DNA of 64,000 nucleotides from Hyphomicrobiales bacterium (GCA_031431295.1 JANPDD010000153.1:8151-72150), one strand, 5' to 3'. Positions 955 to 39,420 are shown, numbered from the stretch's first letter. The notes: generated from the letters alone by a model not told the origin. Numbers and translations: made by a program.

Positions 955-3900
955 CTACTCCGGCAGGCGCTCCCTTGCCATGCGGTTGAGGCTCACATAG
1001 TCCGTCTTGCCCGAGCCCAGCGCGGGCAGCACGGCAAGCGTGAAGATATTTCGGGGGATCATCAGGTCCGCCAGCCCCAGGCGCTTCAAGCCTGTTGCTA
1101 TCTCCTTGCGATCGGGCTTCGCCAACGTGGTGAACAGCGCCAGTTGCTCACCCTTCTTCTTGTCGGGGGCGGCGACCACGGCGTGGCTTTCTTCCGGATA
1201 GAGTTCCGAAAGCTTCAATTCGATGGCGTTGAGCGAGATCATTTCACCACCGATCTTGCAGAAGCGCTTGGCCCGCCCCAGGATTGTGATGAAGCGGCGG
1301 GCGTCGACCGACACGATATCGCCCGTATCATACCAGCCATCAGGCGGCGGTTCGAGAACGCCCGGGTTGTCGGCGCGCAAATAGCCCAGCATGATGTTGG
1401 GTCCCTTCACATGGAGGCGGCCTCCTTCCTCGATGCCGGGCACGGCCTCAAGCCTGTATTCCATGCCATCGAGCAGGCGGCCCACGGTTCCGGCGCGGAA
1501 ATGCATGGGCGTGTTGACGGCGATGACGGGCGAACACTCGGTTGCGCCATAACCTTCGAGCACGCGCAGGCCGAAGCGGTCCATCCAGAGCTGGCGGTTC
1601 TCGGGCTTCAAGCGCTCGGCACCCGCCACCACCAGCCGCATGTTGAAGAAATCATAAGGGTGGGCGTTCTTGGCATAGCCCGCAAGGAACGTGTCGGTGC
1701 CGAACAACACGGTGGCACCTGTGTCGTAGCAGAGCTCCGGCACGATTTTGTAGTGCAGCGGTGAGGGATACATGAAGGTCTGGATGCCCGCCATCAACGG
1801 CAGCATCATGCCGCCTGTGAGGCCGAAGGCGTGAAATACGGGAAGGGCGTTGAAAACAATGTCCTGCGGCGTGAAGGCAATGCGCGCCGCCGCCTGCAGG
1901 CGGTTGGCATTGATGTTGCGATGGGACAGCACCACGCCCTTGGGCACGCCTTCGGAGCCCGATGTGAACAGAATGACGGCGGGTGCATGGGGGTCTGTTG
2001 CCGCACCCCTCTTGCGCAGTGACAGGGTGGTGAATGTTTTCGCCACAAGCCCGCGCAGCTTGTCAGCGGTGCCGACACTCCCACGCAGGTCTTCGAGATA
2101 GACGATCCGGCAGCGCCGGGCGAGGAGCTTCAAGTCCTCTTCCATCTCGCCCAGTTCGATGAATTTCCGCGAGGTGATGATGCTGCGCACGTCGGCTGAG
2201 GCGCAAGCCGCCGCCATGTTCACGGCACCTGTCGAGAAATTCAGCATGGCCGGCACGCGGCCATGGGCATGCAGGCCAAAAAACGTGACAACCGTTGCCG
2301 CTGCGTTGGGCAGCAGCACGGCGATGTTCTTTTCACCAGGTGTTGCCGCCGCGATCTTGCGGCCCAGGATGAAGCTGCCTAGCACGATGCGGTCGTAGGT
2401 CAGGGGCTTGCGCTGGATGTCCTCGATGATCCGGGTCTTCCGCCCATGGAGTTTTCGCGCCGCCAGCAGCGATTGCCAGAGGGTCGCATCAATCGGGGCG
2501 GTCTTGAATTGGGAGTCCGTCATCACATCATAGAGATGTTCCGCCTGGTGTTCGCGGAGTGCTGAACCCTTGAGGCCTTCGGGTGCCCTGACCGCGACGG
2601 GGGCCAAGAAGGTGATGGTGATTTTCGGGAACCACACGGTCGGCAATTTTCCGGCAAGGCGCGAAAAAGGTGTGAGGTGCGCGCCATCAATGCGCACCGG
2701 CACCAGGTGGCCGCGTGCCATCTGGGCCACGGCGGCGGGGCCTTCATAGATTTTCATGAGGCCGCCTGTGACGGTGATGCGGCCTTCAGGAAAGATCACC
2801 ACCTTGCGGCCCCGGCGCAACATGTCGACGAGGCTGCGCAGCGCTAGCGGGTTGGCGGGGTCGATGGGGCAGAGGTCAAACAGCGCGAAGGCGGGCTTCA
2901 CCCACCAGCGCCGGGCCATCTGGGTGTTGATGGCAAAGCCCGCACGCTCCGGCAGAAAGGCGGAGAGCAGGGGTCCGTCGAGAAAGGATGTGTGATTGGC
3001 CACGATGAGGGAACGGCGGCCCCGCGCCGTCACATGTTCGAGGCCCCTGACCTCCACCCGGTAGAGAAGCCGGAACAGTGCGCGCGCCACGGCGGCAAGC
3101 GTGTCATGGGGAAGGACGCCGATGATGTAAACCGCCGCCAGAAGGTTGGCAAAACCGAGGGCGAGGAAAAGCCCGCGCGCCGTCAGCCCCGCCGCCAGCA
3201 GAAGCCCGGACAGCACGGTCGCCACGATCATGAACAGGGCGTTCACGATGTTGTTGGCGCCAATGGTGCGGGCGCGCAGGTAGTAGGGTGTTCGCGTCTG
3301 CATCACGGCAAACAGCGGCACCACATAGAGCCCCGCACAAAAGGCAACGGCGGCAAGATCAAAGAGGGTGCGCAGGCCGTGGATGTTGGTCAGCAGTTCT
3401 CCAGGGGTTGCCGTTGCGCCTGCAATGGCCATGGCATTGGCGCTGCCTGCGGCAAAGTAGAGGTCGATCATGAACAGGCTCATGAGCAGGGCCGAGAGCG
3501 GCAGGAACTTCACGCTCACCTTGCCTCCCAAAAGCCTGTTGCAGAAGATGGAGCCTGACGCGATGCCGATTGAAAACAAGGCAAATATCAGTGTTGCAAT
3601 GGTCTCGGTTCCTTTCAGGCTGTCAATGGTGAACAGCGGGATCTGGGTGACAAAGACCACGCCCAGAAACCAGAACCAGGAGATGCCGAAAATGGCGTGC
3701 AGCACGGGCCTGCGGGCGGCTGCCATGGCAATGACATTCCAGGTTTCAGAGAAGATGTTCCAGTTGAGCTTGAGGTCGGGTTGGGCCGAGGGTGCCGCGG
3801 GAATTTGCCGCGCTGTCCAATAGGAGAAGACAGCGATCGCAACCATGACCACGGTCACGAGCTCACGGCCACCCGTGGCGTTGATGGCGATGGTGCCGAA

Positions 3901-4395
3901 GATTGTACCCAGCAGCACGGAGACAAAGGTTGCCATTTCCACCATGCCGTTGCCGCCCAGCAACTCGTCCTTGGTGAGGTGCTGGGGCAGGATCGAATAT
4001 TTGATGGGTCCGAAAAAGGCGGCCTGGGCACCCGCCAGAAAAATGCAGAACTGCTGCAGCGGCACGCTCGTCGTATAGAGTGCAAACACCGAAATGGCGA
4101 CGATGAAGATCTCGATGAATTTGATGCACCTGGCCATGAAGGCCTTGTCAAACTTGTCGGCGAGCTGTCCTGCAAAGGCGGAAAACAGGAAGAAGGGCAG
4201 GATGAACAGGCCCGCCGAGATGGTGTTGAGAACACCACCCTGCTCCTTGCCAAGCGTTGTCAGCAGAATGATGGAAAGGGCAAAACGGTAGGCATTGTCG
4301 TTGAAGGCGCTGAGCGCCTGGGTGACAAAGAGGGGAAGAAACCGCTTTGTTTTCAACAATGCGAATTGGCTTTTGCCAGAATTTTTGCCAGGCAT
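955..4395 (-). CDS. aas: Tri-domain fusion: MFS lysophospholipid transporter (LplT-like) + PlsC-type acyltransferase + acyl-ACP synthetase (Aas-like)
   Basis: 1146-aa ORF. N-terminal ~400 aa are multi-TM MFS-like. NHTSFLDG (HX4D) and FPEGR acyltransferase motifs follow. AMP-binding motif ILFTSGSEGVPKGVVLSHRN and C-terminal adenylate-forming domain. Confidence 0.85.
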   Translation of the reverse strand: MPGKNSGKSQFALLKTKRFLPLFVTQALSAFNDNAYRFALSIILLTTLGKEQGGVLNTISAGLFILPFFLFSAFAGQLADKFDKAFMARCIKFIEIFIVAISVFALYTTSVPLQQFCIFLAGAQAAFFGPIKYSILPQHLTKDELLGGNGMVEMATFVSVLLGTIFGTIAINATGGRELVTVVMVAIAVFSYWTARQIPAAPSAQPDLKLNWNIFSETWNVIAMAAARRPVLHAIFGISWFWFLGVVFVTQIPLFTIDSLKGTETIATLIFALFSIGIASGSIFCNRLLGGKVSVKFLPLSALLMSLFMIDLYFAAGSANAMAIAGATATPGELLTNIHGLRTLFDLAAVAFCAGLYVVPLFAVMQTRTPYYLRARTIGANNIVNALFMIVATVLSGLLLAAGLTARGLFLALGFANLLAAVYIIGVLPHDTLAAVARALFRLLYRVEVRGLEHVTARGRRSLIVANHTSFLDGPLLSAFLPERAGFAINTQMARRWWVKPAFALFDLCPIDPANPLALRSLVDMLRRGRKVVIFPEGRITVTGGLMKIYEGPAAVAQMARGHLVPVRIDGAHLTPFSRLAGKLPTVWFPKITITFLAPVAVRAPEGLKGSALREHQAEHLYDVMTDSQFKTAPIDATLWQSLLAARKLHGRKTRIIEDIQRKPLTYDRIVLGSFILGRKIAAATPGEKNIAVLLPNAAATVVTFFGLHAHGRVPAMLNFSTGAVNMAAACASADVRSIITSRKFIELGEMEEDLKLLARRCRIVYLEDLRGSVGTADKLRGLVAKTFTTLSLRKRGAATDPHAPAVILFTSGSEGVPKGVVLSHRNINANRLQAAARIAFTPQDIVFNALPVFHAFGLTGGMMLPLMAGIQTFMYPSPLHYKIVPELCYDTGATVLFGTDTFLAGYAKNAHPYDFFNMRLVVAGAERLKPENRQLWMDRFGLRVLEGYGATECSPVIAVNTPMHFRAGTVGRLLDGMEYRLEAVPGIEEGGRLHVKGPNIMLGYLRADNPGVLEPPPDGWYDTGDIVSVDARRFITILGRAKRFCKIGGEMISLNAIELKLSELYPEESHAVVAAPDKKKGEQLALFTTLAKPDRKEIATGLKRLGLADLMIPRNIFTLAVLPALGSGKTDYVSLNRMARERLPE

Positions 4396-4431
4396 GTCCG
4401 TCTCCTAGTGCATCGGGCGAGCAGTTGGAAC

Positions 4432-15808: not shown

Positions 15809-16123
15809 ATGCAAGGTCCCAACACACTGATTTGCTATTGTTACCGCGATGCCGGGAATACAAAATTCTGGGGCGAGTTCGTTGTGTTAGGCCAAGTCAC
15901 GCGAAAGCAACTTGAGAAATTCTTGTTCGATGGTGAGTGGTTTGTTCCGGAACAGATTGGACTCAATCACTTGCTTAAGGAGCCGTGGTCGAAACTCGAC
16001 CATATATTGCACGAACTGCATGAATTTGAAGACACGGAAAGAACAGACCATTTTTGCGGTGCCGACGAATTGATTGAGAAATTTGAGTGTGCTCACACAA
16101 AGGGTTGGTTTGACGGGTACTAA
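15809..16123 (+). CDS. Small Cys/His-containing hypothetical protein, first gene of the islet operon
   Basis: Track ORF 15797-16123; the ATG at 15809 gives MQGPNTLICYCYRDAGNTKFWGEF... with CxC near the N-terminus and CGADELIEKFECAH near the C-terminus. The stop TAA overlaps the next ATG (TAATG). Confidence 0.6.
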   Translation: MQGPNTLICYCYRDAGNTKFWGEFVVLGQVTRKQLEKFLFDGEWFVPEQIGLNHLLKEPWSKLDHILHELHEFEDTERTDHFCGADELIEKFECAHTKGWFDGY

Positions 16124-16971
16124 TGACCATGGCGACACAGCGCGGCACCGACTGGAGCGTTGATGAGGTTGAGGTCTGCGTCGCAGCCTACTTCGATCAT
16201 TTGGCCTTGGAACTCACGGGGAACACATTCAACAAGGCACAGTTATATCGGGACTTATCCGAGCAGACGGGTAGAACTGCCAAATCTATTGAGTTCAAAT
16301 TTCAAAATATATCAGCAATCCTAAATGCCATAGGTCGCGAATGGATGACGGGCTTAGCTCCATTGGCAAATTACCAAGAACTTCTCGCACAGAAGGTTTC
16401 CCAGCACATCGTCAGAATTGATGATCTTCCACTGAATTCACTGGTCGACCTGCAAAACGAAACGTTAGGGTTGAGCGAATCCGCATCTTTCTATTTGGAG
16501 GCTCCGCCTGAGCTGCGCAGGTTGTCAGACGACCCTCCAGAATATATTGCGGCCCTCGCTCGCAAATTCGATCCAGTTGAACGGGACATCAAGAATCGGG
16601 CGCTTGGTGAAGCTGGGGAGCAGTTTATCTTCAACCACGAAAAGCGCTTCCTCTCACTTATTGGACGAAGAGACCTTGCTAATAACGTGAGGTGGACAGC
16701 AAGAGAAGAAGGCGATGGGGCAGGCTACGATGTGTTGAGCTTTACGGACCGGGGAGAGAAAAAATACATCGAAGTAAAGACGACAGTTGGAAGCGAGCGA
16801 ACGCCTTTCTTTGTTAGTCGCAATGAACACAGGTTTTGCAAACATAATTTAGAGCATTACAATCTCGTTCGAATCTTCAATTTTCGCAAAGGAATGAGGG
16901 GGTTTGAACTTCGTGGAGATATTGAGCAATATGTTCGACTGTCGACTGAGAGTTATCGCGCCGAGTTCTGA
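16123..16971 (+). CDS. DUF3883-like (restriction-endonuclease fold) domain protein with an N-terminal WS-DE helical domain
   Basis: 282 aa. C-terminal GEAGEQFIFNHEKRFL...GYDVLSF...KYIEVKTT...FFVSRNEHRF...YNLVRIFNF matches my recollection of DUF3883 and carries a D...ExK nuclease-type motif. The N-terminus DWSVDEVEVCVAAYF...RTAKSIEFKFQNISAIL resembles the leader domain of many HNH/restriction-like proteins. Confidence 0.65.
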   Translation: MTMATQRGTDWSVDEVEVCVAAYFDHLALELTGNTFNKAQLYRDLSEQTGRTAKSIEFKFQNISAILNAIGREWMTGLAPLANYQELLAQKVSQHIVRIDDLPLNSLVDLQNETLGLSESASFYLEAPPELRRLSDDPPEYIAALARKFDPVERDIKNRALGEAGEQFIFNHEKRFLSLIGRRDLANNVRWTAREEGDGAGYDVLSFTDRGEKKYIEVKTTVGSERTPFFVSRNEHRFCKHNLEHYNLVRIFNFRKGMRGFELRGDIEQYVRLSTESYRAEF

Positions 16972-23904: not shown

Positions 23905-25542
23905 CTATGCCGCGCCGCGCCTTGCGGTTTGTTGCGTTTCGCTGGACAGTTGCTCACGGCCATTCTGGCGGTCATTTTGGCGGCCGTGCTGGCTGTCATT
24001 TTGGGACTTGCCCTGCACGGTTTCGGCGAGGCTCTTGATGGCCTGATCGACCGACCTCACGGATTGGGTCACGTGTTCTGCGAGCCTGGCATTGTTTTGG
24101 GCCACATTCTCCAGATAGGTGACGCTCTTGTCGATCTGCTGCACACCTTCGGCCTGCTCATTGCAGGCATTGGAGATGTTCATGACCAGGTCAGCGGATT
24201 GCCGGGTCGATGCGGCGATCTTGACCATGCTTTCGTTCAGTGTGGTGGCGAGCGCGGTGCCTTCTTCGAGTTGCTTGCGGCTTTCGCGGATGTGGACGTG
24301 GATGTCCTTGAGGGCGCTGGCACTGCGCTGGGCCAGGGCGCGCACCTCGGAGGCAACCACGGCGAAACCGCGCCCCAAATCGCCGGCGCGGGCTGCTTCA
24401 ACTGCGGCATTGAGGGAGAGCAGGTTGGTCTGGAAGGCAATCTCCTGGATGAGATCGGTGATCGACAGGACGCGGTGGTTGGTTTCGGAGATCTGGGAGA
24501 TGGCGTCGCGGACATTCGACGAGATTTGACTGCCCTCAAGGGCCAGCGTGTTCGCGGTCGTTGCAAGGTCCCGGGCGGTGTGGGAGTTGTCGGCACTTTG
24601 GCGGATGGCTGCCGCCAACTCGCGGATGGCGGCCGACATTTCCTCCAGATTTGCCATTTGCTCGTCGGTTTGGCGCGACAGGGTGTCTGCCCCGCCATTG
24701 AGGGATTTTGTGCTGCCGCTGATTTGTGACAGGCTGTCCCTCGCCTGGCGCAGCACGCCATCAAGGCGTTGGCTTTGGCCCTCGAACTTTTCCCGAAGTG
24801 CCGTGACTTCGGAGATGTCGACGAGGCTGATGATGGCGGACTGGACTGTTTCATGGTCAAGGCGCTTCCAGCCCGAACTCATGACAAGAAGTCTCCTGCC
24901 CTTCTGGCTTTCAACGTGCACGCCCGATTCATACCGGCAGGGCGCTCCGGGAAATCCTGGTGGAGAGGCGTCAAGCAGCGTTTGCACGTCTCGCAGGTGG
25001 GAGGGTGCGCCCTTGAGCCCAAGGTAATCGACAAGCAAGCTGTTCGAGTAACCGACGTTTCCCTGCTCGTCGACCTGGAGAACGCCGACGGGTACGGCCT
25101 CCGTCAGCAGCTTCTGCTGGGCCTCGCGCTTTTTCAGCTGTGTCAGATCACTGTTGGTGCCCAGCACATAGGTTTTTCCATTCGCTCCAGTGACCACGGT
25201 CTTGCGCGTAAGCACGGGTACGCGTTTGCCGGTGGAAGCATTGTCGACCTCTTCCTCGATCACGTATTCCTTGCGCGTTTCGAGCAGTTTGCGTTCACGC
25301 TCCATGTAGCCCTTGGCCAAGTCCGAGACATGGATTTCAAGATCCGACTTGCCAATCAGTTCGGCACCCGTCCTGCCGCAAATTTCGCGTTGCGCGCGGT
25401 TGGCAAGCACGAAGCGGAGTTCGGAGTCCTTCGCATAGACCGGTGTTGGCAGGTTCTCGATGATGGTCGCGAGGACATCCAAGTCCTGAACCTGCATTTC
25501 TTCCCCAAGCGGTTTGGGGGCGGCTCTTCGACGGGAAAACAT
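23905..25542 (-). CDS. Soluble methyl-accepting chemotaxis protein with PAS domains
   Basis: 545 aa with no TM segments. PAS-like N-terminal half. MCP signalling domain [40 protein letters not shown]. Confidence 0.88.
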
Positions 25543-27098: not shown

Positions 27099-27109
27099 CA
27101 AAGACCATA

Positions 27110-27193
27110 CCCTCCCCTCGGGGAGGGATACAGGATGGGGCAGCCCGCGTGTTCAGCGGTCGAACCACTCCTGCCCCTCCCTGTCGGGAGGGG
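27110..27193 (+). promoter_or_regulatory. Two GC-rich stem-loops in the rpsO-pnp spacer (rpsO terminator / pnp leader processing candidates)
   Basis: ccctccc-ctcg-gggaggg (27110-27127) and cccctccc-tgtc-gggagggg (27174-27193). Neither has a T-run. About 250-nt leader before pnp. Confidence 0.6.
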
Positions 27194-27346: not shown

Positions 27347-29491
27347 ATGTTCAACATCGACGTAGAAGAATTGGATTGGGGCGGCAAGCAGCTCCGCATG
27401 GAAACGGGGCGCATTGCCCGCCAGGCCGATGGTGCCGTACTCGTCACCATCGGTGAGACAACAGTCCTCGCCACCGCCGTTGCGGCGCGCAGCGAAAAAC
27501 CTGGCATTGATTTCTTCCCGCTCACGGTCAACTACCAGGAAAAGACCTATGCCGCTGGCAAGATTCCTGGTGGCTACTTCAAACGCGAAGGCCGCCCGAC
27601 GGAACGCGAAACACTGATTTCGCGCCTCATTGACCGACCCATCCGCCCCTTGTTTCCTGCTGGCTTCCTGCATGAAACCCAGGTGATTGCCACGGTCCTT
27701 TCCTATGACCTGGAAAACGACACCGACATTGCAGCACTCGTCGCCACATCGGCGGCCCTCACGCTCTCCGGCATTCCCTTCATGGGTCCCATAGGGGCAG
27801 CACGCGTCGGTTATGTTGACGGTGCTTATGTCCTCAACCCCACAATCGAGCAGCAGAAGCTTTCGCAGCTTGATCTCGTGGTCGCAGGCACCCAGGACGC
27901 GGTGCTGATGGTCGAATCGGAAGCAAGCGAACTTTCGGAAGACGTCATGCTCGAGGCCGTCATGTTCGGCCACCGGGGCTTCCAACCCATCATCGAAGCC
28001 ATCATCAGGCTTGCCGAACGCTCGTCACGCGAGCCCCGTGATTTCAAGCCCAAGGACCACACGGCCCTTTATGCGGCAGTGAAAAAACAAGCCGAAGCGG
28101 ACCTGCGCAAGGCCTATGCCATGCCCAAGAAAGAAGAGCGCCAGAACGCGGTGGCCAAGACCAAGGATGCCGTGAAGGCGGCCCTCGTCAAGAAGGAGGA
28201 CCCGAACGCGCCCTCCGAACAGGCGGTGGGTGAAAACTTCAAGCATCTTGAAGCCGACATTGTGCGCAACAACATTCTCGACACGGGAAAACGCATTGAT
28301 GGCCGCGACACCACCACGGTGCGCCAGATCATCGCTGAAACCTCCGTGCTGCCGCGCACCCATGGTTCGGCACTGTTCACACGCGGCGAAACGCAGGCGC
28401 TGGTCGTGACCACGCTCGGCACCGGCGAGGACGAGCAGTATATCGACACACTCGATGGCCTCACCAAGGGCAAGTTCATGCTGCACTACAACTTCCCTCC
28501 CTTCTCGGTGGGTGAAGTGGGCCGCATGGGCGCCACGGGCCGCCGCGAAATCGGCCATGGCAAACTCGCCTGGCGCGCCATCCATCCGCTTCTGCCGAAG
28601 CCGGAGGATTTCCCCTACACGGTGCGCCTGGTCTCCGAGATCACCGAGTCCAACGGCTCCTCCTCCATGGCCACGGTGTGCGGATCATCGCTTGCTCTGA
28701 TGGACGGCGGTGTGCCGATGAAGGCGCCCTGCGCCGGCATCGCCATGGGGCTCATCAAGGAAGGCGAGCGCTTTGCCGTGCTGTCGGACATTCTGGGTGA
28801 TGAAGACCACCTGGGCGACATGGACTTCAAGGTGGCAGGCACTGCGAGCGGCATCACGGCACTGCAGATGGACATCAAGATCACCGGCATCACCGAAGAG
28901 ATCATGCGGGTCGCGTTGTTCCAGGCCAAGGAAGGCCGCATGCACATTCTCGAAAAAATGTCGGAAGCGCTGGAGAAGGCGCGTCCGGGCCTTGGCGAGC
29001 ATGCGCCGCGCATCGAGCAGATCAAGATCCCGACGGACAAGATCCGTGAAGTGATCGGCACGGGCGGCAAGGTCATCCGCGAAATCGTCGAAAAGACCGG
29101 TGCCAAGATCGACATCCAGGACGACGGCACCATCAAGGTGGCGTCTTCGTCCGGTGCCGCGATCACGGCGGCCCTGAAGTGGATCAAGTCCATCGTGTCG
29201 GAACCGGAAGTCAACGAAATCTACGAAGGCAAGGTCGTTAAGATCATGGAATTCGGCGCTTTCGTGAATTTCTTTGGCGCTCGCGATGGCTTGGTGCACG
29301 TCTCGGAGTTGGCGCCCCAACGTGTTCAGAAGGTGAGCGATGTCGTGAGCGAAGGCCAGATGGTCAAGGTCAAGTTCCTCGGCATGGACAACCGCGGAAA
29401 GATCAGGCTTTCGATGAAAGTGGTCGATCAGGCTTCGGGCGAAGACTTGTCGAAGAAGCAGGCTGAAGCAGCACCTGCCGACGCCGAGTAA
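27347..29491 (+). CDS. pnp: Polyribonucleotide nucleotidyltransferase (PNPase)
   Basis: Start at [16 protein letters not shown] within track ORF 27287-29491. Two RNase PH domains, a KH domain and an S1 domain ([16 protein letters not shown]). Confidence 0.97.
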
Positions 29492-29515
29492 ATCATCAAA
29501 CCACGGATGAATTTG

Positions 29516-29543
29516 AACGCCGGGGAAACCCGGCGTTTTGTTT
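29516..29543 (+). terminator. Intrinsic terminator after the live pnp
   Basis: aacgccggg-gaaa-cccggcgtt followed by ttgttt. Confidence 0.85.
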
Positions 29544-29556
29544 GTGATGTGTCCGA

Positions 29557-29585
29557 TTGACATCCATACCAGTTTGGTATAGGCA
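29557..29585 (+). promoter_or_regulatory. Putative higBA promoter with operator palindrome
   Basis: TTGACA at 29557-29562. Perfect palindrome atacca-gtt-tggtat at 29566-29580 overlaps a TATAGG/TAGGCA -10 candidate just before the higB ATG. Confidence 0.55.
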
Positions 29586-29591
29586 TATGCC

Positions 29592-29882
29592 ATGCATGTC
29601 ATCGCCAAGCCAGCGCTGATCCGCTTTTGGGAACAACATCCGGACGCGCGGTCATCGTTGATGGCATGGTACAAAGTCATCCGGGAAAACAACTATGCGA
29701 GTTACGTCGAGTTGAAGAAAACCTTTGCGACCGCCGACCGTGTGAAGGGACTGACCGTGTTCAACATATCAGGGAACAAGTATCGCCTGATCGCCGCGAT
29801 CCACTACAACAGGCACAAAGTCTACATTCGCCGTGTGCTCACACATGCCGAATATGATCTTGGGAAATGGAAACAGCCATGA
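29592..29882 (+). CDS. higB: Type II toxin HigB (mRNA interferase)
   Basis: 96 aa. MHVIAKPALIRFWEQHPDA...VFNISGNKYRLIAAIHYNRHKVYIRRVLTHAEYD is typical of the HigB family. The toxin precedes the antitoxin, as in hig loci. Confidence 0.85.
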   Translation: MHVIAKPALIRFWEQHPDARSSLMAWYKVIRENNYASYVELKKTFATADRVKGLTVFNISGNKYRLIAAIHYNRHKVYIRRVLTHAEYDLGKWKQP

Positions 29883-30295
29883 AACACGAAATCATTTCGA
29901 CGGGACATCTGCTCAAGACCTGGAAGCCGTTCCGGGATGTGCTCGGATTTTCCACCATCCGCACAACGAAGGACTATGCCCGTGCAAATGCCGTGATGGA
30001 TCAATTGCTGGATGAGATTGGCGAAGATGAAAACCATCCATTGGCCGGGGTGCTTGAGTACTTGTCCATCCAGGTTTTGGCGTATGAGGCTGAGCGCGTC
30101 AGCATCCCAGATGCACCGCCGCGCGATGTGCTGCGTTTCCTGATGGAACAGCACGGACTCTCGCAGTCTGATCTCGGTGATTGCGCGCCGCAAAGCAGGA
30201 TTTCCGAGATTCTGAACGGGCGGCGGGAAATCAGCAAAGAACTGGCAAAGGCATTGGCTGGCAAGTTCGATGTCAATGTAGGCGTATTTATCTGA
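29879..30295 (+). CDS. higA: Type II antitoxin HigA (XRE HTH)
   Basis: ATGA overlap with the higB stop. C-terminal [43 protein letters not shown]. Confidence 0.85.
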
Positions 30296-30301
30296 GACTC
30301 G

Positions 30302-30438
30302 AGTTCCCCGGCATGGACAACCGCGGCAAGATCAGGCTTTCGATGAAGGTCGTGGATCAGACGACGGGCGAAGACCTGTCGAAAAAGCAAGCTGCCGAAG
30401 GTGGCGACGAAGGCGGGGATGAGAAGACGGGGGACTGA
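30302..30438 (+). repeat. Displaced copy 2 of the pnp 3' end
   Basis: Encodes [44 protein letters not shown]. Aligns with pnp 29374-29491, with mostly synonymous differences up to the tail. Confidence 0.9.
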
Positions 30439-30466
30439 GGTCACTCACACCTGTGAAAGAATTGAG

Positions 30467-30500
30467 CGCGGGTGCAGAAAGGTGCCCGCGTTTTTCTTTT
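30467..30500 (+). terminator. Intrinsic terminator after pnp-tail copy 2
   Basis: cgcgggtgc-agaaag-gtgcccgcg (9 bp including 2 GU pairs) followed by tttttctttt. Confidence 0.8.
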
Positions 30501-30523
30501 GCGCTCAACACAAAATCTAACAC

Positions 30524-30559
30524 CTTGTAAAGACCCATTACAAGTGCTATTAAAAGTGC
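30524..30559 (+). promoter_or_regulatory. Putative promoter/operator of the second TA cassette
   Basis: TTGTAA-17nt-TATTAA. Inverted repeat cttgtaa...ttacaag (30524-30544). Direct repeat aagtgct x2. Confidence 0.5.
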
Positions 30560-30576
30560 TGAAAAAGGCAAATTCA

Positions 30577-30825
30577 ATGACTCACCAAATTCACGCAACG
30601 ACCACCGCCAGCGTTACAGAACTGAAAAAGAACCCGATGGGCATTGTAGCTGCGGGGGAAGGTTTCCCGGTGGCCATTCTTAATCACAACGAGCCGGCCT
30701 TTTATTGCATTCCTGCCAAAGCCTATGAGGCCATGCTTGAGCGGCTGGAAGACCTGGAACTCAACGCCATCGCCGATGCCCGCGAAGGCCAGACCGTCCA
30801 CAAGGTCCGGCTCGATGAGCTATGA
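30577..30825 (+). CDS. Phd/YefM(StbD)-family antitoxin
   Basis: Internal ATG of track ORF 30472-30825 (the upstream part of that ORF covers the terminator). MTHQIHATTTASVTELKKNPMGIVAAGEGFPVAILNHNEPAFYCIPAKAYEAMLE is a typical Phd/YefM fold sequence. Confidence 0.8.
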   Translation: MTHQIHATTTASVTELKKNPMGIVAAGEGFPVAILNHNEPAFYCIPAKAYEAMLERLEDLELNAIADAREGQTVHKVRLDEL

Positions 30826-31096
30826 ACTGGCCTTCCTTGATGCGGCGCTGTAGGAATGGCGCAAACTCGACAGCCAGACCCGGGACCAGTTCAAGGCCAA
30901 ACTGGAAGAGCGGCTTCAAAACCCCAAAATCCCCTCGGCGCGACTGAATGGCCCGAAGGACCGCTACAAGATCAAGCTGCGCAATGCCGGATACAGGCTC
31001 GTCTATGAAGTAAGGGACCAGCAGTTGATCGTACTTGTTGTCGCGGTGGGAAAACGCGAGCGGAATGAGGTGTATAAGGCGGCGGAACGGCGGTGA
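30815..31096 (+). pseudogene. relE: RelE/StbE-family toxin with a premature in-frame TAG at codon 13
   Basis: Hand translation: MSYELAFLDAAL*EWRKLDSQTRDQFKAKLEERLQNPKIPSARLNGPKDRYKIKLRNAGYRLVYEVRDQQLIVLVVAVGKRERNEVYKAAERR*. TAG at 30851-30853 sits where the family has Lys (ALKEW). No downstream in-frame Met. Confidence 0.8.
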
Positions 31097-31121
31097 GGGA
31101 GACGAGGACAAAATCGTCTAA

Positions 31122-31262
31122 GTCAAGTTCCTCGGCATGGACAACCGCGGAAAGATCAGGCTTTCGATGAAAGTGGTCGATCAGGTGACGGGCGAAGACC
31201 TGTCGAAGATGCAGGCTGCCGAAGGTGGCGCTGACGGCGGGGACGAGAAGACGGGGGACTGA
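31122..31262 (+). repeat. Displaced copy 3 of the pnp 3' end
   Basis: First 64 nt are identical to 29369-29432. Encodes [46 protein letters not shown]. The tail resembles copy 2, not the live gene. Confidence 0.92.
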
Positions 31263-31288
31263 AGCTTACAACGAATACAGGAATGATG

Positions 31289-31318
31289 GGCGCGGGGTGT
31301 GTTTAGCCCCGCGTTCGT
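31289..31318. terminator. Stem-loop after pnp-tail copy 3, overlapping the stop of the convergent 255-aa gene (bidirectional terminator candidate)
   Basis: cgcgggg-tgtgtttag-ccccgcg followed by ttcgttt. Confidence 0.6.
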
Positions 31319-32070
31319 TTCAAGAATTCCTCCCGGGAGATGCTGGTAGTCGGAAGATTTCCATTGGACTGAAGAATGAGTTCGACTCTGATGCCGTTGT
31401 ACCCATCTTCATCTCTGGTAAAACTGAACTGCCTGTTGGCTACCGAATAAATTGTTTCGTCGCCAAAAAACCGATCTTCTCCGTACCAAGTACTGCCCGC
31501 GACGTAAAAAAGTTCAAAGGTGCCGAGCGGCATCTTTGATTCCAGTGTTTGTCCAGCCCTGACGTAATACGACGCTACTGTAAGGCCTTTGCCATCAACC
31601 AAATACACAAAATAGTCTGCGTTTGAGGAAACGCCTATCTTAAACGGAGCAACGCTACTTTTCGGAGCCTTGCCAAAGCGACCAGTTTCAGGTCGAGCCA
31701 GGCCAAAAACTTCCTCATCAGTGAGCTCTTTTTTCCCGAGGTCGCTCCAGTCCAAGTCATCGGGTTTGGCGCTTGTAGCTTCCGCAGTATCTGTTTGGTC
31801 CACAGAGGTGCCAGCCGCCGATGGAGCTACTGTCCTCTGGGAATTCTCGGAAACAACTGCGGTGCGTGGCAACAAGAACATCGTCCCAAAAGCGCCAACA
31901 ATTATTCCGATTAGAAGGAGGCGCCCGCCGCTTCCGCCAGATCTGCGAGGAATTGCGATCAAAACTCTACCGCAGTTTCCACAAGCCACGCTGGACGAAA
32001 TAGTGGGTGGAACACTATTCAGCGTATTACAGGATGAGCATTGAAGGAGGTTGTCTGCCATGGCGACCAA
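31303..32070 (-). CDS. Hypothetical membrane-anchored protein: N-terminal double CxxC zinc ribbon, one TM helix, conserved-looking C-terminal beta-rich domain
   Basis: 255 aa. CSSCNTLNSV...CGNCGRVL. TM segment LLLIGIIVGAFGTMFLL. C-terminal DYFVYLVDGKGLTVASYYVRAGQTLESKMPLGTFELFYVAGSTWYGEDRFFG. Lower GC by eye. Confidence 0.7.
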   Translation of the reverse strand: MVAMADNLLQCSSCNTLNSVPPTISSSVACGNCGRVLIAIPRRSGGSGGRLLLIGIIVGAFGTMFLLPRTAVVSENSQRTVAPSAAGTSVDQTDTAEATSAKPDDLDWSDLGKKELTDEEVFGLARPETGRFGKAPKSSVAPFKIGVSSNADYFVYLVDGKGLTVASYYVRAGQTLESKMPLGTFELFYVAGSTWYGEDRFFGDETIYSVANRQFSFTRDEDGYNGIRVELILQSNGNLPTTSISREEFLKRTRG

Positions 32071-32112
32071 CTTGCAGTGGACGACCTACAGTCACATAAT
32101 TGGCGACATGGT

Positions 32113-32408
32113 TCAAGGATGCGGCGTGATCGCGATGATTGTGATCACGTCTTTTCCGGGGCCGTAGTGCCAGAACACGCGGTAAGCGCCGGGCGTGTTG
32201 TTTTCCGCGTAGGCTTCAAAGATACCCTCGCCAAACTCGCCTGCGAGGCCGTTGTATTTGTGTGTATTAAGTCCGGGGTGGCGAGGGTTGTTTTCAAGAT
32301 GTGCCAATGCCTTGTGAACCGCCTTGCAGCGCTTTCGAAGTGCCGGATTGGCCTCAAGATCATCATCTGCGCATTTGCCTCAGAAGTAAACTTGACGCGG
32401 AAGGGCAC
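32113..32408 (-). pseudogene. Putative ParE-like/RelE-superfamily toxin disrupted by a 1-nt frameshift
   Basis: GTG at 32408 opens VPFRVKFTSEANAQM, then the coherent sequence continues in the -1 frame: DDLEANPALRKRCKAVHKALAHLENNPRHPGLNTHKYNGLAGEFGEGIFEAYAENNTPGAYRVFWHYGPGKDVITIIAITPHP*. Restoring one G in cagatgatgatc (to cag atg gat gat c) joins the frames. Family assignment is from memory of ParE-like toxins ending ...ITPHP. Confidence 0.55.
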
Positions 32409-32416
32409 AGGACGCC

Positions 32417-32677
32417 CTATGCGCCAAGATGCTTCTTGAAACTACCGCGCGAGGTGACACGACCAGCAGCAGATTCTGCAAGTCCCCGCCTGACGCTCTC
32501 CAAAGCTTCAGGGTTCTTGAACAGCCAGCTCTCCCGCAGCGGAATCTCAACAAAGGGCACCAGCACGATGCTTCCATCTTTTTCCTGGCGGGCGTGAAAA
32601 CTCGAGATGCCCTCAGCCAGCTTGCCGAGCGTGACACGGCCCTTGGAATCAGGCCGAAGATTGAGTGTTTGTGTCAT
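32417..32677 (-). CDS. AbrB/SpoVT(MazE)-fold antitoxin
   Basis: MTQTLNLRPDSKGRVTLGKLAEGISSFHARQEKDGSIVLVPFVEIP is a swapped-hairpin AbrB-type motif. Start taken at the second Met of track ORF 32417-32695. Palindrome gtgggaaat-agtcc-atttcccac (32680-32702) lies just upstream. Confidence 0.7.
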   Translation of the reverse strand: MTQTLNLRPDSKGRVTLGKLAEGISSFHARQEKDGSIVLVPFVEIPLRESWLFKNPEALESVRRGLAESAAGRVTSRGSFKKHLGA

Positions 32678-32708
32678 AAGTGGGAAATAGTCCATTTCCC
32701 ACTAACCT

Positions 32709-33707
32709 TCAAGTGGGCTGCAAACCTCTCGCCTTCGCGTACTCCAGGCACGCCTCCCACGGCCTGATGGAGGCAGACGTGGTGATCCCGTGCAGCGATG
32801 TGGCGGCACTGGCATTGGCCAGCGCCAGACATTGCCCGAGCGGCCAGTCCTCGTGGATCCCAAACAACATGCCGGCATGGAAGGCATCACCGGCACCCAC
32901 CGCACTGACGATCTCTGCCTGCGGCACATTCACGGCGGCGGCCCGCACCACTTCACCCGACTTCGTTGCAGCGACAGCGCCCATGGGATGGTGAATGGCG
33001 GCGATCTCGCCAACGCCCAAGGCCAGAAGGTTGCGTGCTGCCGCCTCGGCCAGTGCCCAGTCAAAACGGCCCTCGCGCAGCACGGGCAGTCCGCCCACAA
33101 TTTCAGCTTCCGAGTCATTGATGATGAAATAGTCGAGCAGCGGCAGGCAAGGCCTGGTGTAAGTGCGTTGCGTCTTGGCCGGGACAGGGCAGAGTTCCAT
33201 GCAGGTCTTGAAGCCGCGCCGCTTCACGGCCGTCAGCACCGTGCGCCAGCCATCGCTCTTGTCCATGGACGACGAGAGCCCCGGCGAACCCAGATAGAAA
33301 ATTTTTGCCGTGTCCTGTGTCGGCAAGAGGTGTCCGGCTGCCAGCGTGTCATTGGCGCCGGGGCGATAGAAGAAGGTGCGCTTTCCGGTTTTGGCCGCCG
33401 TCATGACGTGGGTGTAGTCGGTGTTGATGTTGGCCACACGCCTGATACCGGAGACATCAAGGCCTGCCGCCTTGGCATTGTTTAGAAACACATCGCCATA
33501 CTGATCATCCCCAACCACGCCGATCATCGCCACGGGAAATGGTGCGGCAAGCCTGATCAGGCTGGTCGCGGCATTGTGGGGCGGCCCCCCGGCGGAGAGT
33601 ATGCATTCGCGGATGAAGGAAATCTGCTCTTCCTCCGGCCAGGTTTCGATCACGTTGTTGACATCGAGAACGGCAGTTCCTGCGCAAATGATGCCGGAGC
33701 GAGCCAC
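32709..33707 (-). CDS. PfkB-family carbohydrate kinase
   Basis: 332 aa. N-terminal GxG-rich sheet (IICAGTAVLDV). C-terminal ATP motif VSAVGAGDAFHAGMLFG. Confidence 0.85.
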   Translation of the reverse strand: MARSGIICAGTAVLDVNNVIETWPEEEQISFIRECILSAGGPPHNAATSLIRLAAPFPVAMIGVVGDDQYGDVFLNNAKAAGLDVSGIRRVANINTDYTHVMTAAKTGKRTFFYRPGANDTLAAGHLLPTQDTAKIFYLGSPGLSSSMDKSDGWRTVLTAVKRRGFKTCMELCPVPAKTQRTYTRPCLPLLDYFIINDSEAEIVGGLPVLREGRFDWALAEAAARNLLALGVGEIAAIHHPMGAVAATKSGEVVRAAAVNVPQAEIVSAVGAGDAFHAGMLFGIHEDWPLGQCLALANASAATSLHGITTSASIRPWEACLEYAKARGLQPT

Positions 33708-38370: not shown

Positions 38371-39420
38371 TCAACGGCGTTTCCGGGTGCGGCCTTTTTG
38401 AACAGCAGGGCCATCGGAGTGGCGTGACCCTGACCGTTGAGACAGGGAATTTTTCGAGAGGGGATGATAGGTTTCAACGGCCGCCATCAGACGTTCACCC
38501 TGGACATGGGTGTAGATCTGCGTTGTTGAAATGTCGGCGTGACCCAACATCTGCTGCACCGCTCGCAGGTCCGCGCCATGATTGAGAAGTGCAGTGGCAA
38601 AGCCGTGCCGCAAGACGTGCGGTGAAATGCTGGCCGGTGAAAGCCCGGCGCGCGCGGCAAGTGCCTTCAACTCAATGGCGAAATGCTGGCGTGTGAGTGC
38701 GCCTGATTTTCCATGGGATGGAAAGGCCCAGGGGTTCTGTGTCTCTGTCCTGCTGGCACGCAACAACAGATAGTCATCAATGACGGCGCGGGCCGCCGCC
38801 GACAGGGGGACGATCCGTTCCCGCCCGCCCTTGCCCTTGATCGTCAGCATGTCGCGTTCAGCGGCCAGTTGGCGGCAGGTCAAGCCGACGAGTTCGGACA
38901 CGCGCAATCCGGTTGCCGAAAGCAGGGTCACGAGGCAGTGGCGTCGCCAAGCCTTGAAGGCCTTTCTGGCGTTGCTGCCCCTTGCTTCTGCGGAAGCAGT
39001 CTTGATCAGTGAGGCAATACCAGCGGCAGACAGCGTCCGTGGCAGGGCCCGATCAAGTCTTGGCCCTTCGACAATGAGTGCGGGGTTCTCGCTGCTGATG
39101 CCTTCGCTCAGGAGAAAGCCATGGAACTGGCGGATGGCAGAAAGCCGTCTCGCCTGGGTCCGCGCCGCCAGCCCATGGGCCTCAAGCCTTTCGAGGTAGC
39201 TGCGAATATGCTGGGTGCTGGCGTACGGCGGGCTTGCACCATTGGCGGCGAGACTGGCCGCATAGTCGGCAAGGTCACGGCCATAGGCGAGGAGGGAATT
39301 TTTCGCGGCCCCCCGTTCAGCTGCCATCATTTCCAGGAAACGGCCAATCAGATGGTTTTGGCGGTTTTGGCGGTCCTTGCGGCCCGGGGCTTGTGCACTA
39401 GTCCTGTCGGAGTTTCTCAT
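38371..39420 (-). CDS. xerD: Site-specific tyrosine recombinase XerD
   Basis: 349 aa. FLEMMAAERGAAKNSLLAYGRDL N-terminal SAM-like domain. Catalytic HVLRHGFATALLNHGADLRAVQQMLGHADISTTQIYTHV. Confidence 0.9.
   Translation of the reverse strand: MRNSDRTSAQAPGRKDRQNRQNHLIGRFLEMMAAERGAAKNSLLAYGRDLADYAASLAANGASPPYASTQHIRSYLERLEAHGLAARTQARRLSAIRQFHGFLLSEGISSENPALIVEGPRLDRALPRTLSAAGIASLIKTASAEARGSNARKAFKAWRRHCLVTLLSATGLRVSELVGLTCRQLAAERDMLTIKGKGGRERIVPLSAAARAVIDDYLLLRASRTETQNPWAFPSHGKSGALTRQHFAIELKALAARAGLSPASISPHVLRHGFATALLNHGADLRAVQQMLGHADISTTQIYTHVQGERLMAAVETYHPLSKNSLSQRSGSRHSDGPAVQKGRTRKRR

Follow-up and report, generated by a model that had tools for sequence, protein, structure and literature searches.

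Displaced ends of pnp suggest serial, homology-anchored entry of toxin-antitoxin genes at a recombination hot spot in the Hyphomicrobiales

Many hot spots of gene transfer in bacterial chromosomes lack recognizable mobile-element genes, and accounts of the way in which genes get into them rest mostly on inference. The question is raised by a 64,000-nt stretch of DNA from a Hyphomicrobiales bacterium (GCA_031431295.1 JANPDD010000153.1:8151-72150), hereafter the window, with all coordinates given on its one strand. There, the last ~125 nt of pnp, the gene for polynucleotide phosphorylase (PNPase), together with a pnp-type terminator, are present three times (29369-29548, 30299-30503, and 31103/31122-31318), and these tail copies bracket two toxin-antitoxin (TA) gene pairs, higBA and phd/relE. 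By what route did the TA genes arrive, and why is each accompanied by the end of a housekeeping gene? The answer that we favor, with a probability of roughly 0.58, is an insertion-duplication for which homology to pnp serves as the anchor, reached through a single crossover or through homology-facilitated illegitimate recombination (HFIR). The organism is, judged from its sequence, an Aestuariivirga-like member of the Hyphomicrobiales; the contig probably stems from a metagenome or draft assembly, and the view of the genome is that given by the 64-kb window. An exact look-up of the window PNPase found no record, and a homologue search returned 8000 proteins, the best with 93% identity.

The first-pass annotation of the window had proposed three pnp tails, each with a stem-loop of its own, and BLAST comparison (E-values of 1e-23 to 1e-42 among the copies) and folding bear this out. 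Besides the pnp tail, the 64-kb window contains no other family of direct repeats of at least 45 nt within 10 kb. The copies diverge by 5 to 12% in their shared core, about 38 nt of which are nearly identical across all of them. As had also been seen earlier, the first 64 nt of copy 3 are identical to the live gene (29369-29432 = 31122-31185), which may reflect either a point of crossover or a tract of conversion. Downstream of there, copy 3 tracks copy 2, and both end in ...GG(D/A)(E/D)GGDEKTGD*, a Gly/Asp/Glu-rich tail not found in the live gene, whose last ~60 nt encode a tail of the type considered imported below, ending in ...AEAAPADAE*. Copy 2 starts 3 to 6 nt past the higA stop and has a Leu-to-Pro change in the conserved FLG motif, and the junction of copy 3 lies 7 to 25 nt past the relE stop. 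In the part shared by copies 1 and 2, 11 codons differ, 7 of them synonymously, in agreement with the original observation that copy 2 departs mainly at synonymous positions. Because the differences among copies are mainly of this kind, we conclude that the copies diverged while each served as a working gene end in a separate lineage, and not as a decaying duplicate formed in situ. A long target-site duplication was considered and rejected, since the different tail types of the copies exist live in relatives and the differences are mainly synonymous.

Table 1. Features of the pnp-pfkB interval in the window
Feature	Position	Strand	Evidence or remark
Live pnp (PNPase, 714 aa)	27347-29491	+	Open reading frame; homologue search
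Tail copy 1, the live pnp 3' end	29369-29491	+	Right half of foreign type
T1, pnp-type intrinsic terminator	29515-29548	+	Travels with higBA; terminator scan; fold z = -4.2
higB, toxin	29592-29882	+	Pfam HigB_toxin, 6e-29
higA, antitoxin	29879-30295	+	Pfam HTH_3
Tail copy 2, displaced pnp 3' end	30299/30302-30438	+	Repeat comparison
T2, pnp-type terminator	30464-30503	+	Terminator scan; fold
phd/stbD, antitoxin, intact	30577-30825	+	Pfam PhdYeFM_antitox
relE/parE, toxin, pseudogene	30815-31096	+	Pfam ParE_toxin; NCBIfam RelE_StbE
Tail copy 3, displaced pnp 3' end	31122-31262 (exact similarity; weaker back to ~31103)	+	Repeat comparison
T3, pnp-type terminator stem, weak U-tract	31288-31318	+	Fold z = -5.0
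255-aa open reading frame, Cys-rich N terminus, hydrophobic segment	31303-32070	-	Part of low-GC islet
Third TA pair, toxin, frameshifted	32113-~32410	-	Compared with intact homologous pair in L091 (4527-5214)
Third TA pair, antitoxin, intact	32417-32695	-	Three-frame translation
pfkB-family kinase, conserved right border of variable interval	32709-33707	-	Pfam PfkB

To ask where the tails came from, we compared the locus with those of relatives (designated by L numbers); the genus-level comparison comprised nine pnp-pfkB loci with enough sequence. The stem-loop behind each tail copy folds with a z-score between -4.2 and -5.0. T1 and T2 are canonical intrinsic terminators in the terminator scan; the stem of T3 is good but its U-tract poor, and the stop codon of a convergent open reading frame (ORF) of 255 aa falls within it. 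T1 is homologous to the terminator ahead of higBA in L090, T2 to the pnp terminators of L081, L083, and L086, and T3 is similar to the pnp terminator of L085. All three are homologous to pnp terminators of relatives, so the repeated unit is a pnp tail plus a pnp terminator, about 200 nt in all. T2 now terminates higBA, and the displaced tails and terminators would in general now act as 3' ends of the TA operons upstream of them.

The two tail types are distributed by clade. In the closest PNPases (91 to 93% identity; P0002-P0009), the C terminus reads ...GGDEKTGD; in a clade at ~90% identity (P0014, P0016, P0017, P0025, P0030-P0034, P0038, P0039), it reads ...QEAAAAPADAE. When the DNA is compared, copy 1 in its right half, together with T1, is nearest L096 and L090, and the right halves of copies 2 and 3 with their terminators are nearest L081, L083, L085, and L086, all members of the window's own clade. 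Because the closest whole-gene relatives carry ...GGDEKTGD and the right half of copy 1 with T1 is nearest the AAPADAE lineages, the comparison supports import of the live pnp tail, with the ...GGDEKTGD type ancestral and now displaced. This is in keeping with the earlier proposal that the live tail came in with higBA, and the check on tail type set out with that proposal comes out in its favor. Copy 3 is probably the ancestral tail of the lineage. As to where the imported DNA begins, pnp up to ~29234 is closest to L086 and L087 (92% and 91%, respectively). The 134 nt just upstream of the repeat (29235-29368) are 80 to 84% identical to every relative, after 240 nt that are 92% identical to L086. 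This local break in clade affinity at ~29235 suggests a recombination tract, the last imported one having begun in the pnp body. With the nearest relatives ~85% identical in DNA, sliding-window identity could not locate crossover points.

Evidence that the units have moved between genomes comes from two relatives. Window positions 30299-31093, comprising copy 2, T2, phd, and relE, align end to end with L090 5905-6668, where the same block is the live pnp tail, its terminator, and phd/parE. A second block, 29516-30258 (T1, promoter, and higBA), aligns with L090 6842-7587; in L090, higBA lies distal to phd/parE, with a T1-like terminator still ahead of it. The order in L089 is pnp, brnTA, truncated higA, phd/parE, and the 5'-truncated higA remnant abuts brnA and phd directly with no tail between, so that some TA stacks, in L089 as in L090, have no intervening tail. 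These alignments show that tail-terminator-TA blocks are common to several genomes, with new arrivals placed beside pnp and older ones pushed outward, truncated, or trimmed.

The state of the cargo is consistent with that order. Pfam confirms HigB, HigA, Phd, and ParE/RelE between the tails, where higBA and stbD/relE had been called in the first-pass annotation; the second pair proves to be defective, as relE is a pseudogene with an in-frame TAG at codon 13 (30851-30853), a position that is Lys13 in the homologues of L089, L090, and L094. Both HigBA and Phd/RelE-ParE consist of adjacent small toxin and antitoxin genes with family domains, as in type II TA systems, and with relE inactivated, just one of the two pairs between the tails still makes up a live TA system. 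Its higB and higA are full length against their homologues, forming an intact type II pair (best HigA homologue, 85% identical), and a TTGACA promoter and palindromic operator are predicted ahead of them at ~29553-29590. By sequence, only this cassette, the one nearest pnp, has a live toxin. Toxin decay thus grows with distance from pnp, which fits the proximal cassette being the youngest. The idea of serial insertion of units made of tail, terminator, and cargo therefore gains support from both the colinearity with L090 and the gradient of toxin decay.

Is such gene entry peculiar to TA pairs? The nine genus-level loci have nine different gene sets between pnp and pfkB, and the same modules lie at differing distances from pnp among relatives. 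The contents include SDR, RlmL, fasciclin, PRC, LprI, DUF3429, BrnA, isochorismatase, and AsnC genes as well as several TA pairs, and pfkB also forms the right border in L086-L088 and L092-L093. On the comparison of these loci, the pnp-pfkB interval is a hypervariable recombination hot spot in the genus. Displaced tails recur there with other cargo. Behind an SDR gene in L086 lies a tail that is decayed and internally deleted, its junction 83 nt past the SDR stop. In L096/L097, found on three contigs from different samples, the live tail and terminator are followed by an oppositely oriented ankyrin-repeat gene, a second tail that is complete and has its terminator, and then hicAB; the junction in L096 falls in the intergenic spacer beside the ankyrin gene. 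Short orphan-tail ORFs also occur in other samples (P0241 and P0244), one of them clearly decayed. Expressed as pnp positions, the displaced tails start on their left at ~29343 (L096), ~29350-29369 (copy 3), ~29370 (copy 2), and ~29413 (L086). This spread of ~70 nt over four edges argues against one site, though the edges may also reflect lengths of attP homology or later erosion. Beyond the genus, duplicated tails are absent from the 10 kb around 80 species-level alphaproteobacterial pnp loci, and the arrangement is therefore not a general one. A pattern scan of metagenome DNA yielded only 5 short loci, all single-copy.

Some database entries imitate displaced tails. L095 is a 2x-coverage long-read contig in which pnp is broken into seven ORFs by frameshift errors. 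P0254 was rejected as an orphan tail, since it is a pnp interrupted by frameshift errors on a long-read contig of 2x coverage. P0253 begins with MCIRDS, which resembles translated sequencing adapter. L095 and P0253 are database artefacts that mimic orphan pnp tails.

A dedicated element would be expected to leave signs of its enzyme or its attachment site, and these were sought in several ways. Pfam and NCBIfam profile searches found no recombinase or transposase among the ORFs of the islet between pnp and pfkB, as had been claimed at the outset, and 20 further ORFs around it include a single recombinase, of the XerD/XerC type, whose gene (38374-39420) adjoins accA. This gene is syntenic in L087 and therefore a core gene; it scores below integron integrase cut-offs. 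No recombinase is present in the pnp-pfkB intervals of the nine relatives. Even with 3 mismatches allowed, the dif core has no match anywhere in the window, no tRNA gene was found in its 64 kb, and Rfam finds no RNA family between 26.5 and 33 kb. There are no remnants of integration or transfer genes from integrative and conjugative elements (ICEs) or integrative and mobilizable elements (IMEs), each unit consisting of tail, terminator, promoter, and two TA genes. Nor was a cognate integrase-bearing element found in the 64-kb window, the nine genus-level loci, the 10 kb searched at the 80 species-level loci, or viral contigs. An origin from a phage attP is unsupported, as no viral contig carried a pnp tail. 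A plasmid cointegrate is likewise unsupported, the plasmid search having given TA-gene homologues that never adjoined a pnp fragment.

How, then, could the stack have formed? We propose that DNA of a related strain would enter the pnp-pfkB interval with conserved pnp as the homologous anchor. By one route, a fragment made of pnp 3' end, terminator, and cargo would recircularize and undergo a single crossover inside the pnp-tail homology, giving a Campbell-type insertion-duplication. By the other, HFIR, the homologous end would recombine in pnp and the other end would join illegitimately inside the resident tail. Either way, the donor tail and terminator would complete pnp, and the resident tail would be pushed downstream as a noncoding scar. 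Two such events would be stacked in the window, phd/relE first and higBA last. Once lodged between two tails, cargo could spread to naive relatives by plain double crossover, and it would be prone to loop out between the tail repeats. An active TA pair would penalize its own loss in this way, leading to overrepresentation of TA genes, and decay would follow inactivation of the toxin. Spread by double crossover, loop-out, and TA-penalized loss are offered as a scheme that the arrangement allows. What the sequence itself shows is the anatomy, the foreign type of the live tail, colinearity with other genomes, the gradient of toxin decay, the variability of the junctions, and the want of a recombinase. 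We likewise infer that RecA and other host functions are the enzymes, that the intermediate is circular or linear, and that TA addiction has a selective part.

General recombination is favored over a dedicated element because there is no recombinase, the cargo is mixed and in both orientations, the edges vary, one insertion is coupled to a deletion, and stacks occur both with and without tails. In experimental systems, DNA with one-sided homology gives mostly single-crossover products, with duplications of 109 to 950 bp of the homologous locus, and more rarely HFIR, in which insertion is coupled with deletion and the variable junctions have little or no homology (PMC3240628). At the pnp locus, there is likewise a conserved anchor (pnp) on one side and a variable, nonhomologous junction on the other. 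In L086 and L096 as in the window, a tail and its terminator are duplicated over 125 to 200 nt, inside the range of 0.1 to 1 kb, and the insertion in L089, where brnTA abuts the 5'-truncated higA, is coupled with a deletion as HFIR predicts.

Several observations sit uneasily with anchored insertion-duplication. On their left, copies 2 and 3 start no more than ~20 nt apart, and each of the three TA cargos ends 0 to 25 nt past a stop codon; this is tidier than random illegitimate joins predict. The codons AGG-CTT-TCG are common to all three window copies and absent from the nine relatives, which calls for gene conversion among the copies or for unsampled close donors. With an imported tract that starts upstream of the repeat, the 64-nt identity of copies 1 and 3, skipping copy 2, has no clean explanation. 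The proposal also presupposes RecA dependence and a way for DNA to get into the cell, be it transformation, a gene transfer agent, or conjugation, and an integrase acting in trans may lie outside the visible 64 kb. Finally, pnp was the sole core gene examined, and a preference for it as an anchor is presumed.

These difficulties lead us to keep the alternative that the units resemble cis-mobilizable elements (CIMEs), integrase-less units with attL and attR formed by the pnp 3' end, accreted in tandem and mobilized in trans by an integrase elsewhere or by a helper island targeting pnp. Direct repeats of the 3' end of the target gene flank each unit, with the incoming copy restoring the gene, and such flanking repeats are a hallmark of islands and prophages in gene 3' ends and of tandem accretion (PMC5704250). 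The units are bounded by att-like repeats and lack integration and transfer genes, as a CIME is, copies 2 and 3 start at almost the same pnp position, and the cassettes are compact, with boundaries conserved between genomes. Yet units of 0.8 to 0.9 kb are far below described CIME sizes and retain no integration- or transfer-gene remnant, and the only recombinase at hand across the islet and the nine relatives' intervals is the window's syntenic XerD/XerC-type gene. The ~70-nt span of the four displaced-tail edges, the mixed cargo in both orientations, sometimes stacked without a tail (L089, L090, L094), the want of a viral contig with this pnp tail, and the 80 species-level loci without a tail duplicate within 10 kb all tell against it as well, and the inverted repeat sits in conserved coding sequence and may be chance. 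We regard this explanation as unlikely. Lower still we place the thought that the pnp tail and terminator are the recombination site of a dedicated trans-acting recombinase that stacks promoter-bearing cassettes, an integron-like platform with a coding end as attachment site that is exchanged at each capture. The window contains no integron integrase, the cassettes have promoters of their own, and the repeats are coding sequence plus terminator and not recognizably attC; such a platform would be a long shot. The earlier suggestion of a distinct, unnamed class of TA-only mobile cassettes is not supported: non-TA genes share the hot spot, displaced tails flank SDR and ankyrin genes, left edges vary over ~70 nt, L089 and L090 have tail-less TA stacks, one of the two bracketed toxins is a pseudogene, and the pattern fits insertion-duplication and HFIR (PMC3240628).

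Two further explanations concern where the stack was made, or whether it is real. All or most of the three-copy stack might have been imported ready-made by a double crossover, with its left end in the pnp body and its right end in copy 3 or beyond. The loss of pnp clade affinity from ~29235 onward, the lineage-specific AGG-CTT-TCG codons, shared by all three copies and not by sampled relatives, and the clear exchange of interval modules among genomes would all agree with such an import. It would merely move the origin to the donor, however, where the stack still needs serial insertion-duplication, and the agreement of copies 2 and 3, in their right halves, with the clade of the window's nearest relatives fits a local origin of at least copy 3; this version seems to us distinctly improbable, more so than the CIME-like one. 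As for an assembly artefact, in which strain variants of one locus were chained via the shared pnp core, the probable metagenome or draft origin of the contig and the ~38-nt core nearly identical among copies give some cause for caution. Against this stand the junctions of the higA stop with copy 2 and of the relE stop with copy 3, which are unique sequences and not shared k-mers, the 5 to 12% divergence of the copies from one another, and the recurrence of the architecture in contigs assembled independently, by other assemblers and from other samples (L086; L096/L097 on three contigs). That the triplication is an artefact, a concern raised when it was first noticed, is hardly credible.

Preferring insertion-duplication anchored on pnp, we asked how the locus relates to systems already described. 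Insertion-duplication and HFIR are known from Streptococcus pneumoniae, Acinetobacter baylyi, Pseudomonas stutzeri, and Escherichia coli conjugation (PMC3240628). The pnp locus shares with them a one-sided homology anchor, foreign DNA beside the anchor, and no dedicated recombinase. It differs in that those are low-frequency laboratory events, whereas here there is a natural repeated stack, with the coding end swapped between clades and TA genes enriched. CIMEs and tandem accretion are described at ICE and IME attachment sites (PMC5704250, which cites Pavlovic et al. 2004). Those elements, unlike anything found at the pnp locus or in relatives, are decayed ICEs or IMEs of several kilobases that need an element with the cognate integrase.

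Prophages and islands in gene 3' ends offer a second comparison. The prophage e14 and phage 21 integrate in E. coli icd and leave an icdC fragment, and islands at tRNA and tmRNA genes leave tandem displaced 3' fragments. As in those cases, at pnp the incoming end is functional, differences are mostly synonymous, the old end lies distal as a pseudogene, and the order of fragments gives the order of arrival; repeats of the target end flank the units and the live ORF is complete. In contrast to those elements, which have their own integrase and a fixed crossover core, no element-encoded recombinase is present at pnp, the units are 0.8 to 0.9 kb, and the edges vary.

A third likeness is to chromosomal type II TA islets, which lie between core genes and decay in place, such as ccdO157 between folA and apaH; E. 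coli TA loci are also said to alter flanking coding ends. Common to both are small autoregulated operons in conserved intergenic positions, a patchy distribution, and toxins inactivated by point mutation while antitoxins persist. What sets the pnp locus apart is that each arrival is marked by the displaced end and terminator of the neighboring gene, making order and mechanism readable. Literature searches found no description of this exact pattern. The locus would be a natural case of a known kind of outcome, in which scars of insertion-duplication are stacked at a hot spot and the coding end of a housekeeping gene is swapped.

These displaced pnp ends would amount to time-stamped scars, recording entry by neighbor-anchored recombination and the order of arrival, with a C-terminal tail swapped between clades as a by-product. 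The locus suggests a testable reason for the piling up of TA genes, namely, that cargo between direct repeats is looped out unless its loss kills the cell, with decay beginning once the toxin is dead. The genus offers a natural series of full copies, eroded copies, and copy-less stacks that could be used to measure the rates of these processes.

The islet itself extends beyond the region first described. It runs past 31318 to 32708, ending at the pfkB stop (32709), with a GC content of 0.49 to 0.55 against 0.58 to 0.64 in the flanks, and the relE TAG codon, this extension, the 255-aa ORF, and the third TA pair are all additions to the first-pass annotation. The 255-aa ORF (31303-32070) has no Pfam or NCBIfam match; its region, with a GC of 0.49 to 0.53, has the lowest GC of the islet (0.485), and its last codons overlap the T3 stem-loop. 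The third TA pair begins 13 nt past the pfkB stop, leaving no room for a promoter of its own.

Upstream, truB and rpsO precede pnp on the + strand, and GC-rich palindromic repeats of the CCCTCCCC...GGGGAGGG type lie between rpsO and pnp at 27108-27190. Similar elements, resembling repetitive extragenic palindromes, lie between the TA cassettes of L090 (6690-6740 and 7640-7686), and a related short element recurs in L088 and L092-L094. Other TA pairs occur in the same operon region of relatives, with RelB3/ParE between rbfA and truB in L089 (5927-6510) and L090 (1805-2385); in the window, the place between rbfA and truB is taken not by a TA pair but by a chemoreceptor gene (23905-25542). At 3835-4420, L088 has a HicB-like antitoxin gene (3835-4185) with an unannotated 84-aa ORF adjoining upstream. 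Insertion of small genes between core genes looks common in the genus. Farther upstream in the window, ahead of nusA, an ORF at 16123-16971 has a NOV_C (NO VEIN C-terminal) domain, a domain often found in defense-island proteins.

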